64,000 bases of DNA from contig CAMAPH010000008.1 in assembly GCA_945859975.1 (NCBI GenBank), positions 16,121 through 80,120 on the forward strand, read 5' to 3'. The translations under genes and the position numbers were made by a program. Source of the stretch: Chthonomonas calidirosea (GTDB taxonomy: Bacteria; Armatimonadota; Fimbriimonadia; Fimbriimonadales; Fimbriimonadaceae). Shown here piece by piece: positions 29,961-64,000 of the stretch; the first letter of the stretch is position 1, and every line of letters begins with the position of its first letter. The notes under the pieces are model-generated. The model was not told the DNA's origin. It searched no databases and worked only from the letters and a program-made list of their open reading frames with translations.

Positions 29961-30995
29961 TCATCCGCCCGTGGTGCCGCGCTTGTCTCGAAACCGCTGG
30001 GTTTTTGGATTTTTTGCGTCCCACTCCGGGGCAACCGTCGCGTCTGCAACCGTAAGGACCGTCCATCCAACGAACTTCACGATCTTCTCCATGTTCGCGT
30101 AGTCGAGCTTTTCCCAGTGATCGCCAACCTTGTGATAGTCCGCAAATGAGAACGCCGTGCAAATGGTGTGAGCTGGAACTCCGGCCATTGCGAGAGCCGC
30201 GTTGTCACTCGCGACAAAGTACGCGTCGCTGAACTGCGGGTGCTTCTGAACTTCAACGCCCGACACCTTACCGACGGACTTCATCCAATCTCCCAGCGTC
30301 GAAAAGTCAGCGCCAGTGACCGACACCGCATTCACTCGAGGCCCCTCGCTGTCATCCGTTCGCCCAATCTGCTCAAGGTTGATATCGGCAACGGTCTTTG
30401 CCAGCGGGAATACCGGGGTCTTCGCATATTCGCGGCTACCCAAAAGCCCTCGCTCTTCGCCCCAAAATGCCATGAAAACGATGGTCCGCTTTGGCTTGAG
30501 CTTGGCAGTGCCGAAAGCGCTCGCAAGCTCAATCAAGCCGGAGGTTCCGCTGGCATTATCGTTCGCACCGTTAAAAATCAGATCCCCTTCTCCCGTCTTC
30601 TTGACCCCAAGGTGATCGTAGTGCGCGGTAACCAAAACGTATGTGTCTTTCAGCTTCGGGTCGGTGCCGGGCAAAATGCCGATGACGTTCTTAACCTTCT
30701 TGTCCTCGAACGTGAACTCTTGGAAGTACGAGCCCGTTGGCAATTCGCTGAGTCCCGCTCGGCGGTAGGCCGCAGCAATGTATTCGGCTGCCGCATCCAG
30801 ACCAACCGATGGCGTTCCTCGGCCGGCCAGGGCATCGCTAGCCAAAAACGCTACGTGCCCTTTCAGGCTCTGTGAAGTGACCGTATCGATTGCGCGCTTG
30901 TAATCTTTGTTATCAACCGGTACGGTTTGCGCGATGCCGAGGCTGGTCGCAAGACCGAGAACAAGGGCGGGGAGAAAAGTACGCCGAAACACCAT
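29961..30995 (-). CDS. M28 family metallopeptidase, secreted
   Basis: Signal peptide; AHYDHLG, NGANDNASG, GEERGLLGS, SDN, YH..GD. Confidence 0.92.
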   Translation of the reverse strand: MVFRRTFLPALVLGLATSLGIAQTVPVDNKDYKRAIDTVTSQSLKGHVAFLASDALAGRGTPSVGLDAAAEYIAAAYRRAGLSELPTGSYFQEFTFEDKKVKNVIGILPGTDPKLKDTYVLVTAHYDHLGVKKTGEGDLIFNGANDNASGTSGLIELASAFGTAKLKPKRTIVFMAFWGEERGLLGSREYAKTPVFPLAKTVADINLEQIGRTDDSEGPRVNAVSVTGADFSTLGDWMKSVGKVSGVEVQKHPQFSDAYFVASDNAALAMAGVPAHTICTAFSFADYHKVGDHWEKLDYANMEKIVKFVGWTVLTVADATVAPEWDAKNPKTQRFRDKRGTTGG

Positions 30996-31004
30996 TCAGG
31001 CATT

Positions 31005-31769
31005 CTATTCCGGTTTCTGCTGCTTGATCGTAAGGATAGTCACCAAACGCCGTTCATAAGGCTCTTTTCCAGTCGGAAAGACCTTGTCCACCGAAACCGC
31101 CCGAATTTTTGCCAGAGTGACCGATCGCGTCTTCCGGTCGAAAGTCGCCGTTCCGTCTCCGGTAATCGTGGACTCCACCCTTCGGGCACCCGGAGCTTCG
31201 GCTTCGAGCGCGTTTCCGGTCTGGTCCTCAAATCCATCCACCGTCTGGGCGATTTTCACGGCCATCTCCACGCGCTCTTCCAGAATCTTGGTGGGCGTCA
31301 CCGTGTATTTTGCTTGGCTCCCGTTGAACGCCTTCTCGAACGTAAACGGGATGTTCAGCTTGACCTCCGCGGCCGGAAACTCCAGCGGCAAATACGTAAT
31401 GTCCGGAAACTTCTGCGAGTCCAGGCCCGGCAAGCGCACCGGAAGCTTGGTTTTCGGCGCATCCGTCGACTCCACCTTTCCGCTTCGCGTGGCAACCACG
31501 GTGGTCGGCGGGAAGAAACCTTGAATGTTCTTCTCTGTGAACGGCAACTCGGCGCCATCCAGGCTCATGCGAAACTTTTCGATTGTGCTGAGCGCTTGGA
31601 GCTTCTTTTCTGGAGCCTCCTGACCATCGACCCGAACCAGAAACTCCACCTTCGCCTTCGATTCCCGCCCCCCAAGAATGGGAACGTAGCCATCGAACTC
31701 GACCGACACATCAAACCGCTGCATAGACCCGGCAACGATGCCGTACGCCAAGATCATAAGCGGCCTCAT
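31005..31769 (-). CDS. Hypothetical protein (probably exported)
   Basis: 254-aa ORF overlapping the upstream stop by 4 nt; hydrophobic N-terminus. Confidence 0.7.
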   Translation of the reverse strand: MRPLMILAYGIVAGSMQRFDVSVEFDGYVPILGGRESKAKVEFLVRVDGQEAPEKKLQALSTIEKFRMSLDGAELPFTEKNIQGFFPPTTVVATRSGKVESTDAPKTKLPVRLPGLDSQKFPDITYLPLEFPAAEVKLNIPFTFEKAFNGSQAKYTVTPTKILEERVEMAVKIAQTVDGFEDQTGNALEAEAPGARRVESTITGDGTATFDRKTRSVTLAKIRAVSVDKVFPTGKEPYERRLVTILTIKQQKPE

Positions 31770-32977
31770 CCCACGCTCCGACGGTGCCGCAGCGGCACAA
31801 CGGGCATGCCAAGGCCCTCACCTGGCGCGGTCGCCACGTTCAGAATCCGATCCAAAATCACCTTCACTGCCCCCGAAATCGGAAAGGCCAAAACCATTCC
31901 CGGCAATCCGAACAACGCCTGCCCCGCCATCACGACGAAGATCGACAAAACCGGACTCAAACCAACCGACTCGCCCACCACATTCGGCACGACGAACGTG
32001 TCAAACGAGGCCCCGATCAGCATGTAAATGATCGCCACCAAGATGCCGTACAGCCATGGATTCCCAACGCTGAACATCGCATTCCCCGCAACGCCCGTAA
32101 AGCCCATCAAGACGAAAATGCAAAACGCCGTGATGAAATTCCCGATGATCGGAATCAGATAAAACGCCCCGAAAACGATCCCGAGCAGGATCGAATAGGG
32201 CAAGCCCAAGAAGGTCAAAACAATCGTCTGAACGATCGTGAAGTACACGATGAGCAAGCTCATGCCCCGGAGGTAGCCGAAGAAAACGTCCGAAACGTCA
32301 CGCGCAATCGAAAGCGTTTGGTTGCGAATCGAAGGTGGAATCCACTTCGGCGACTTCTGCCGGAGGTTGTCCATCTCAAACAAAATCATCATCACGATGA
32401 CCGGAATGAGGAACACCACAAAGAACTGCGACAGCAATCCAGTGAGCAAGCCAAAGAACGAATCGAACGCGCCCTGAACAAAATCCGCGATCTTTTGCCG
32501 GTTAGAGTTGAAATACCGGTCGATCAGACCGCGTCGAGTGGAAGGCAACCCAGCTTGCTCGAGGGTCGTGCCATACCGCTGCAGAATCTTGTCCAGCTGG
32601 CCGGAGGGCGTATCTTCTCTCTCCGTAATCGTGACCGGCTGCCAGCGGACGAAGTAGTTGTCCCGCTCGCCATCCTCAATGATCGTGCGCGTGAGGTCTT
32701 GCGCCTTGATCGAAACGCCCGCAATTTGCCGAACCACCGTCGGCGCAGCCAAAGCGACCACGACTCCGACGATGATGAAGAACGTGGCAATGGTGCCGAT
32801 GACGGCAACGCGTTTTGGCACCCCTCGAGCCGAGAGCTTTCGAATCAGCGGCTCAAGCAGCGCCGCAATCGCGACCGAGAGAACGAACGGGAATAAAACG
32901 CCCCGGACGAGCCACAAAAACACAAGTGCGGCGATAACCACCGCACTCCATATCGCAACTCGCCAGCCGGGCTTCAC
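31766..32977 (-). CDS. AI-2E (PerM) family transporter
   Basis: PF..S..IA.LL.P, YLRG, IP.IG, VPNVVG..VGLSP, G..LFG..G..LA.P. Confidence 0.9.
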   Translation of the reverse strand: MKPGWRVAIWSAVVIAALVFLWLVRGVLFPFVLSVAIAALLEPLIRKLSARGVPKRVAVIGTIATFFIIVGVVVALAAPTVVRQIAGVSIKAQDLTRTIIEDGERDNYFVRWQPVTITEREDTPSGQLDKILQRYGTTLEQAGLPSTRRGLIDRYFNSNRQKIADFVQGAFDSFFGLLTGLLSQFFVVFLIPVIVMMILFEMDNLRQKSPKWIPPSIRNQTLSIARDVSDVFFGYLRGMSLLIVYFTIVQTIVLTFLGLPYSILLGIVFGAFYLIPIIGNFITAFCIFVLMGFTGVAGNAMFSVGNPWLYGILVAIIYMLIGASFDTFVVPNVVGESVGLSPVLSIFVVMAGQALFGLPGMVLAFPISGAVKVILDRILNVATAPGEGLGMPVVPLRHRRSVG

Positions 32978-32983
32978 GACAGA

Positions 32984-33214
32984 TTAAACGCCGAGCTCTT
33001 CGGGAGCGGCCTGTTCAATCTTCTTTCGGTTCTCGGCAACCCACTCTTCGGTCTTTGCCTTGATTTCCTTCAGCTTTTCGTTCAGCTCGCTTCGGAGTTC
33101 ATCGCCTGCCTTAGGAGCAAAAAGAATGCCCGCAGCCGCGCCGATGATGGCTCCCAGGCCAACGCCTGCGAGTAGGTAAAGCATATTGTTCTGGTTGTTT
33201 TGCTCTTGACTCAT
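32984..33214 (-). CDS. YtxH domain protein
   Basis: GAIIGAAAGILFAPKAG.ELR; GGAGG before ATG 33214. Confidence 0.88.
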   Translation of the reverse strand: MSQEQNNQNNMLYLLAGVGLGAIIGAAAGILFAPKAGDELRSELNEKLKEIKAKTEEWVAENRKKIEQAAPEELGV

Positions 33215-63150: not shown

Positions 63151-63152
63151 AA

Positions 63153-63189
63153 AGGTCCCGGCTGGAGATTCCAGCCGAGACCTGTTTTA
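63153..63189. terminator. Probable bidirectional terminator between convergent genes
   Basis: AGGTC.CGGCTGGA-GAT-TCCAGCCG.GACCT followed by T-run. Confidence 0.7.
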
Positions 63190-63206
63190 GGACTTCCCTA
63201 CTTTTC

Positions 63207-63803
63207 TTACTTCTGCTTTCGCTTTCGGAGGAAGCCGAGGGCGCCGAGGCCGAGGATGGCCATGGAGGCTGGCTCTGGCACTGGAGCAGCGGTCTTGAGC
63301 TGGACGTTGTCCACGACTCCGCCGAGGGAGTCGCTCTTACCGGTTCCGAGGAAGGACAGCTTGTCCATTCCGCCAGTTCCCTGCAGGGTGAAGCTGAACG
63401 ACTTCATGCTGGTCATGGTTGGCGAGATGCTGGCGACGATGACATTGTTCCAAAGAACGTCGAAGGTGCCGGAGTTTGGCGCGACGTGATTTCGGAGAGC
63501 GGCATCGAAGGTGAGGGTGTAGAGGCCAGCGGTCGTGTTGACGTTCTGGCTGATCTTCGCGTTTCCGGCGGAGTCAAGTTCGAGGACCTGATGTCCGGTT
63601 TGGCCAGTTACGCCGTAAACCGAAGCGGCTCCGACTTCCATGGTGCCCTGCTCGGCGAACCAGCCACCAACTTTATCGTTCGGGTAGGCGCCCCAGCCGC
63701 CTTTGGTGTCTGGCGATTCGAAGCTGCCATTGATGAGCAGGTCGGCGGAAGCGATTCCGCTTACGAGGGCGATTGAAGCAACGGCGGCAAATTTGAGGTT
63801 CAT
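63207..63803 (-). CDS. PEP-CTERM sorting-domain protein (DUF642/galactose-binding-like)
   Basis: Signal ASA, LLINGSFE, ELD, DNV, VPEPASMAILGLGALGFLRKRK. Confidence 0.92.
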   Translation of the reverse strand: MNLKFAAVASIALVSGIASADLLINGSFESPDTKGGWGAYPNDKVGGWFAEQGTMEVGAASVYGVTGQTGHQVLELDSAGNAKISQNVNTTAGLYTLTFDAALRNHVAPNSGTFDVLWNNVIVASISPTMTSMKSFSFTLQGTGGMDKLSFLGTGKSDSLGGVVDNVQLKTAAPVPEPASMAILGLGALGFLRKRKQK

Positions 63804-63967
63804 GTTTTGTCTCCGCCGAAGTTGGTCCTCGGCCTTACTTCTGAATGATGCCGGATGTGGGTGGCAGGTGTGGGTCACGGTTTTGCGGTGCCGGGTTGGG
63901 GGGACGCCTTGCGTGGCTTTGTGTGGCCTTGCGTTGCCTTGCATGGCCTGGGAAAGCTTTCGGAGCG

Positions 63968-64000
63968 GAATTAATTAATGGTTCCCCCCCAGGGGGATTA
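63968..64000 (-). repeat. Conserved element, copy 2 (inverted, possibly cut by the window end)
   Basis: Reverse complement TAATCCCCCTGGGGGGGAACCATTAATTAATTC matches 42288-42319. Confidence 0.75.

Follow-up and report, generated by a model that had tools for sequence, protein, structure and literature searches.

The window described here is a 64-kb stretch of DNA from a lake bacterium (genome G000, contig C8:16121-80120; the assembly comprises 101 contigs and is 96% complete), in which two copies of a short oriented element, termed the type A site, lie in domains of opposite strand skew. In the lake bacterium and its relatives, ~30 short oriented sites each mark a ~17-kb lopsided stretch of skewed DNA. 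The system is represented in the window by the following features:

28300..46500, + strand: skew domain 1, with a C/A-rich + strand at synonymous positions and lowered sister-species divergence near the site
42279..42320, + strand: type A site of 42 bp, with 12-bp inverted AT-rich arms and an 18-bp spacer containing a G-run
60500..64000, - strand: downstream 3.5-4 kb part of skew domain 2, with a G/T-rich + strand
63967..64000, - strand: second type A site, oppositely oriented and truncated where the contig stops; complete at the matching locus in relatives L031 and L021

Raw skews in 1-kb steps bear out what a first-pass annotation had read by eye, namely a C/A-rich + strand from ~30 to 46 kb (here ~31-46 kb), a reversal after ~61 kb (G/T-rich on the + strand at 61-64 kb) and weak skew in the rest of the window. 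Its claim that gene direction does not matter was confirmed at fourfold sites, with coding-strand frequencies of C 0.70 and T 0.08 in miaB, C 0.55 in the kinase gene, G 0.45 and C 0.21 in minus-strand mnmA, G 0.44 and T 0.33 in the BON gene and C 0.69 in the minus-strand gene at 62195-62743. The sequence TTAATTAA occurs twice in the window versus 0.23 expected, and each skewed zone indeed contains one copy of the element, in opposite orientations (42279-42320 on the + strand and ~63967-64000 on the - strand).

Skew domains are polar and recur along the chromosome

Skew was measured as the excess of G/T at synonymous third positions on the site's strand, using a custom caller of open reading frames (ORFs). 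On the strand of the site itself, the interval from 0 to +3 kb is negative (C/A-rich) at all 18 type A matches in the G000 genome (mean -0.154; standard deviation 0.051-0.064 for 3-kb windows outside domains); a comparison of third-position skew with orientation had been proposed by the first-pass annotation. The 27 loci of two relatives are likewise all negative, being orthologous and not independent. Because two of the 18 matches overlap one locus of a relative, they probably represent 17 loci. In the pooled profile, skew stays near -0.12 between -13.5 and -4 kb, dips between -3 and -1 kb, where recently acquired genes lie, is strongest (-0.18) between +1 and +2.5 kb and has returned to zero by +4.5 kb. 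The element therefore marks the domain as had been claimed, but the domain is off-centre, extending from ~-14 to +4 kb around the site, and its tail reaches ~-45 kb, including at sites set against the assumed replichore. Skew has the same sign on both flanks of the site, and no oriC-type sign change was found there.

For chromosome-wide analysis, 84 of the 101 contigs were placed on the single-contig chromosome of the relative G014, ~60% of which is covered. Skew along the chromosome forms a sawtooth, whose ramps end ~4 kb beyond each site. A model of 30 oriented sites reaches an R2 of 0.48, compared with 0.14 for the best two-replichore model and a mean of 0.095 for 1000 shuffles of site orientation. 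The sign follows orientation at sites set against the assumed replichore and also in one relative with an inversion between two sites, where skew still tracks the sites, in line with the proposed site-directed, strand-asymmetric process. An artefact of inversion, origin and terminus (ori/ter) or misassembly could be suspected from the second site's position at a contig end and from the 101-contig assembly. This explanation is refuted and retains virtually no credence: C8 is collinear with the G014 chromosome, the pattern recurs at all sites in three genomes, and the domains are ramps stronger than background. The feature is real, genome-wide and lineage-wide, and has independent correlates.

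Almost every codon family takes part in the codon shift, which is seen in each of the 12 neighbour contexts, flips with gene orientation and has no motif that stands out; skew therefore reflects biased substitution rather than selected motifs. A selective origin, whether through oriented short motifs similar to FtsK-orienting polar sequences (KOPS) or Chi or through codon usage, is thereby largely refuted and very improbable. Intergenic DNA beside the sites is rich in CCGAAC- and CAAAG-like words, as such selection would predict, yet the enrichment of CCGAAC/CAAAG-type hexamers does not exceed that in distant genes. The word GAACC alone has no predictive value for skew and was rejected as a core signal, its intergenic copies away from A sites showing no consistent skew. 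Fitted rates on the site strand are raised for T>C (x2.0-2.1), G>C (x1.6-1.7) and G>A (x1.2) and lowered for the reverse changes (x0.64-0.83), all as estimates that carry no confidence limits. Three sources would fit this pattern, namely single-stranded DNA damage affecting the opposite strand, a constant fork polarity, or biased conversion. Nicking, unwinding or exposure of single-stranded DNA, as invoked by the first-pass annotation, is hence compatible with the rates, but a biased-conversion model fits them equally.

Two related site types mark the domains

A second site type and a promoter-like sequence lie just upstream of the complete A site in the window:

42134..42178, + strand: type B site, with a layout related to A and different arms, ~100 bp upstream of A
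42030..42059, + strand: sigma70-like promoter, facing B and A and resembling the DNA before the helicase gene described below

Many A sites are preceded at 100-300 bp by a type B site, and B sites standing alone elsewhere mark skew domains as well: seven of nine B-only sites, including one weak hidden Markov model (HMM) match, have a domain polarized in the same way. A promoter at every site was rejected, the match preceding only 4 of 17 A sites. The A site is more likely a double-stranded binding site, here putative, than a conserved single-stranded hairpin, because folding of either strand is weak and varies, and the few mismatches within the arms lack compensating changes. Scanning one genome per species for type A returned 33 stretches, 27 of them in two close relatives, with the other six rejected as chance matches in other taxa. 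The A pattern was present in 1 of 40 relatives drawn and the B pattern in 3 of 46 genus genomes, G000 counted. Viral sequences gave 12 loose matches to type A, all in AT-rich unrelated DNA, and none to type B; a search of Rfam gave no score near the gathering threshold.

Two further site-associated arrangements were observed. At G000:C22:33538-46270, two almost identical B sites in direct orientation flank 12.6 kb of variable genes, and G014 has the same arrangement. A dnaB-like replicative helicase gene (G000:C14:3864-5255) begins ~280 bp downstream of an A site.

Variable cassettes and reduced sister-species divergence

Directly upstream of the B and A sites in the window lies a zone of variable content:

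38940..42000, no strand: variable cassette zone with minus-strand ORFs at 40260-40997 and 41209-41850 and repeats resembling repetitive extragenic palindromes (REP); differs among populations

Sites are located at matching positions in three genomes, and the 3-7 kb upstream of them are often unalignable. A 70% match in G000 was found for 40 of 114 upstream genes of relatives, versus 114 of 127 downstream genes. The protein scan of upstream regions, covering 70 of 92 representative proteins, identified type I, II and III restriction-modification, Mrr, GmrSD, PglZ, HEPN, NACHT and AAA-subtilase proteins; Thoeris TIR and HEPN are also among the upstream genes. The REP-like palindromic repeats of the window are of two kinds (38990-39190 and 39750-40150), the latter with 15 BLAST matches in the genome, several within upstream cassette zones. 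A high-depth repeat at 48777-48877 of the window is ordinary, being an N-terminal prepilin-motif stretch common to >40 genes.

Divergence was analyzed over ~270 kb of loci from the one-genome-per-species scan and 391 kb of the relative G045. Corrected fourfold divergence from the distant relative (sister species) is 0.45 in domains versus 0.85-0.94 outside, whereas divergence from the close relative is not reduced (0.18 versus 0.15-0.20). The ratio of sister-species to close-relative divergence is accordingly 2.54 in domains (95% confidence interval 2.08-3.19), compared with 6.42 just downstream (5.17-8.32) and 4.25 far away (3.45-4.99). Discordant kilobases amounted to 9 of 80 versus 6 of 186 in the domain comparison. 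In run X3, which represents a lake population, differences from the window amount to 6-7% within the domain and 3% beyond it. We infer extra gene flow between species in the domains, because a lower mutation rate would shrink both sister-species and close-relative distances.

Such cassettes would also be expected if the sites acted in the recipient as nicked or gapped hotspots of recombination and integration, with skew arising from strand-biased heteroduplex repair or gap filling. The inverted arms with their asymmetric spacer, the cassettes directly upstream, the 12.6-kb block between two direct B sites and the inversion between two sites in a relative all agree with this explanation, as do rates that go up one way and down the other, as fixation bias would give. 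The mismatch preference of NucS would produce such skew; however, no NucS match was found in G000, where MutS is present, and NucS-biased repair was rejected. Only two tyrosine recombinases (PF00589) were detected in G000, both XerC/D-sized and neither beside a site, and no third was found. The 18-bp spacer of the A site presumably sets it apart from dif, and a one-sided tail of 45 kb is long for repair tracts. We consider recipient hotspots improbable.

A RepA-like helicase gene ends at type A sites

One gene is directly linked to the sites. It encodes an AAA_25 protein of 327-334 residues with a C-terminal part resembling a helix-turn-helix (HTH; G000 gene C44:19268-20272), and its stop codon lies inside or just before an A site at four loci in three genomes (one in G000, two in G014 and one in G045). 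The closest solved relative is RepA of RSF1010 (PDB 1g8y, E 6e-13), followed by DnaB, and no variation is seen among 45 sequences at the positions of Walker A, the catalytic Glu and Walker B. The helicase is present in 17 of 46 genus genomes. Among 28 helicase loci of the genus, skew (covered to 1.5 kb from the gene in other species) is C/A-directed on the coding strand at 22, reversed at two and flat at four, three of which encode long fusion forms; 13 distant homologues from outside the genus have no such skew domain. Viral relatives of the helicase were limited to distant matches, and the neighbourhood of the helicase gene showed no conserved gene for a primase or initiator.

Diverged helicases are accompanied by diverged sites. 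Downstream of the G021 helicase (48% identical) lies a site whose G-run core is similar but whose inverted arms differ; this pattern has 10 matches in G021, three in G051 and none in three other genomes. A further clade carries a third downstream site type, with 2-3 exact matches in four genomes and one in a fifth. Within 200 kb of G060, the domains holding copies of this type have a sign that agrees with copy orientation, and beyond each of the two + clusters skew drops after ~4 kb; for some G060 domains no third-type copy was found.

Several observations concern the helicase loci themselves. The A variant beside the G000 helicase is the one found at the other G014 helicase locus (L199, L198, L215), which suggests conversion between paralogous helicase loci. 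A 52%-identical helicase paralogue (L234:10001-10882), followed by a Cas3-HD-like gene, is inserted at the place matching G000 C55; C55 itself is the most strongly skewed stretch (~-0.3), and no A or B site was found there. Directly upstream of the G000 helicase gene, in the cassette position, lies a type II array of clustered regularly interspaced short palindromic repeats (CRISPR) with worn end repeats (G000:C44:20300-21169), and cas9-cas1-cas2-like genes are located on G000 C66. Separately, G060:C2:760-960 kb and G061:C3:2500-2700 kb contain skew domains that reach 0.2 across 70-120 kb, flip sharply from minus to plus and, in both genomes, lie close to nuo genes.

Alternatively, the sites could be extra one-way origins that serve ordinary replication of a multi-origin chromosome, with skew reflecting fork polarity and with gene flow and cassettes as by-products. 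The sawtooth without a sign change at dnaA in G014, the low R2 of 0.14 for the best two-replichore model, the G060 and G061 domains of 0.2 over ~100 kb and complementary rate pairs that average near 1 are consistent with such origins. The accessible text of PMC4072686 likewise describes atypical GC skew and few DnaA boxes in Fimbriimonas ginsengisoli, and does not report such sites. Nevertheless, the skew sign is equal on both sides of a site, purely one-way forks would leave DNA between facing pairs uncopied (22 kb in the window), DnaA is present in 46 of 46 genomes, and halved inter-species divergence is not predicted. Extra origins are unlikely in our view.

Head, packaging and uptake genes

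Terminase, Mu portal and gpT capsid genes are present on G000 C25 in two separate clusters (10915-13291 and 38082-40696) among housekeeping genes. Of 121 genomes of the order, 78 carry the capsid gene, in almost all cases as a single copy (counts include the unpublished G079), so that host-kept, scattered, single-copy head and packaging genes are found, as in a gene transfer agent (GTA). These Mu-like genes likely encode a GTA-like particle, previously undescribed and predicted here from gene content. The capsid is found in 26 of 30 helicase-bearing genomes versus 52 of 91 others (Fisher p 0.004, overstated through kinship). ComEC and DprA, the uptake genes that go with a GTA, are present, both also occurring in 10-11 of 14 control genomes. 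A word search found no capsid relatives in viruses. Read depth in run X3 is 101.6 and 93.5 inside domains versus 80 outside, a weak difference of 17-27% between contig means.

Other machinery was also considered. That the capsid alone implies skew was rejected, since sampled regions of G041 (140 kb) and G021 (80 kb, containing none of the listed G021 sites) are flat. No match to the TrwB coupling protein exceeded the cut-off, and relaxase families were not searched for; an IS91-type Y2 transposase gave no match either, though positive controls also gave none.

A tentative model of polar copying and transfer

The reading we favour, if at slightly less than even confidence, is that one-way copying launched by a helicase feeds GTA-like transfer that delivers one fixed strand. 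The likely driver is the site-linked, plasmid-type helicase, possibly in concert with the host-kept phage heads. The sites would be polar loading points for a mobile RepA/DnaB-type helicase of superfamily 4 (SF4) with a C-terminal HTH, whose gene stands directly against one or two sites per genome, the remaining sites being non-autonomous copies. Travelling 5'-3' on the strand opposite the site, i.e., upstream, the helicase would start one-way run-off copying. Products would be packaged by the old Mu-like head genes of the host, packaging beginning a few kb downstream of the site, and would enter recipients via ComEC/DprA as one fixed strand. Repeated rounds could lead to a one-strand substitution bias, extra gene flow and swaps of defence cassettes between homology arms, with the transferred unit consisting of homology arm, defence cassette and homology arm.

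SF4 helicases move 5'-3', which here corresponds to the strand becoming G/T-rich and to the upstream direction, toward the long tail. Phage DNA is ejected last-in-first-out, and ComEC takes up DNA 3'-first. A headful series running upstream, combined with such ejection and uptake, would deliver one and the same strand along the entire unit; this would extend to the +4 kb arm, whose equal sign fork polarity alone does not explain. No source for 3'-first uptake was found in PMC8579336. Helicase binding and activity, copying, packaging, particle size and the strand taken up are all inferred, and the overall mechanism is plausible. A related proposition, which we hold somewhat more tentatively, is that a one-gene selfish module, comprising a RepA-like helicase-HTH and its cognate polar site, seeded dozens of non-autonomous sites around the chromosome and would steer an ancient host GTA to carry defined units of homology arm, defence cassette and homology arm between cells and species, or that the same sites would serve as many one-way origins.

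A number of points weigh against helicase-launched transfer. No particle, copying or binding has been observed. The +4 kb arm of the same sign needs an added assumption, a first cut several kb from the site, and each polarity match of the mechanism has a one-half chance of arising at random. The site model leaves half of the variance unexplained, and the best of the 1000 shuffles reached an R2 of 0.38; strong within-contig domains lack an A or B site (C1 110-122 kb, C3 40-51 kb), and two of nine B-only sites lack a domain. Fork polarity or biased conversion would account for the rate pattern equally well, and highly expressed genes, which also lower divergence, were kept in the divergence test. 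No helicase match was found in 52 of the 78 capsid-bearing genomes, kin among them not being independent. Baseplate and tape-measure genes were not found with two families, Baseplate_J and PhageMin_Tail, in a genome that is 96% complete, and depth in run X1 differs by only ~5% (contig means 18.2, 17.9 and 17.2).

New here relative to the first-pass annotation are the strain-variable, defence-rich DNA upstream of the sites, the halved sister-species divergence, the helicase gene ending at a site, the head genes and the second site type. Bacterial strand skew is usually read in terms of one origin and one terminus; here, cis sites override this pattern, and they coincide with defence hotspots and inter-species gene flow. 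If transfer is the correct reading, it would represent a GTA with sequence-defined polar cargo, making the old question of selected GTA cargo testable; if the sites are origins, the chromosome would be a multi-origin bacterial one. Either would constitute a new bacterial chromosome organisation, readable from strand skew alone, and local skew offers a cheap screen for such systems in other genomes.

Comparison with known systems

Several known systems share parts of this arrangement. Phage-inducible chromosomal islands (PICI) and P4 satellites, with lateral transduction, combine a helicase gene followed by a cis site with an adjoining defence hotspot and a possibly borrowed capsid, as seen here. 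Unlike in these satellites, no integrase or att-bounded island was seen, and the sites, most of them gene-less, are scattered but occupy corresponding places in three species. Integrons and Xer/dif-captured cassettes also place variable, defence-rich genes on one side of a fixed site. In contrast to them, the present system has an 18-bp spacer and kilobase-scale skew, no third tyrosine recombinase was found, and no repeat bounds each gene; IntI and an attC after each cassette were not found, and B sites do not follow each gene. Compared with conjugative transfer from an origin of transfer (oriT) or of the high-frequency recombination (Hfr) type, skew here extends behind the site as well.

RepA of RSF1010 serves strand-displacement replication. 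This IncQ plasmid protein (PDB 1g8y) has an SF4 helicase domain with intact motifs, like the protein described here, whereas the present gene is chromosomal and HTH-fused, and skew does not flip at the site. A literature search, with most subscription journals outside its coverage, returned no description of such a system. As far as the available text of PMC5786225 goes, the GTA of Dinoroseobacter shibae resembles the system in having several favoured chromosomal regions, for which headful series were proposed; its peaks, however, lack a sequence motif and packaging was proposed both ways, whereas here the motif is sharp and polar.

Most like the present system, by analogy, is Bartonella run-off replication (ROR) together with the Bartonella GTA (BaGTA). 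According to the accessible portions of PMC2697382 and PMC5496983, the features in common are a phage-type helicase gene at the origin, favoured variable adaptive genes, host-kept head genes, ComEC/DprA uptake and decay with distance. The word "skew" does not appear in the accessible text of PMC2697382 and PMC3483213. While a helicase gene stands at the site here too, a single bidirectional phage-derived origin was not found. According to the same partial sources, ROR proceeds from a single bidirectional origin with a half-distance of ~620 kb and a Twinkle-type helicase, whereas the lake bacterium combines ~30 oriented sites, one-sided ~17-kb domains and a ~45-kb tail with a mobile RepA-type helicase, Mu-like head genes and strand skew.

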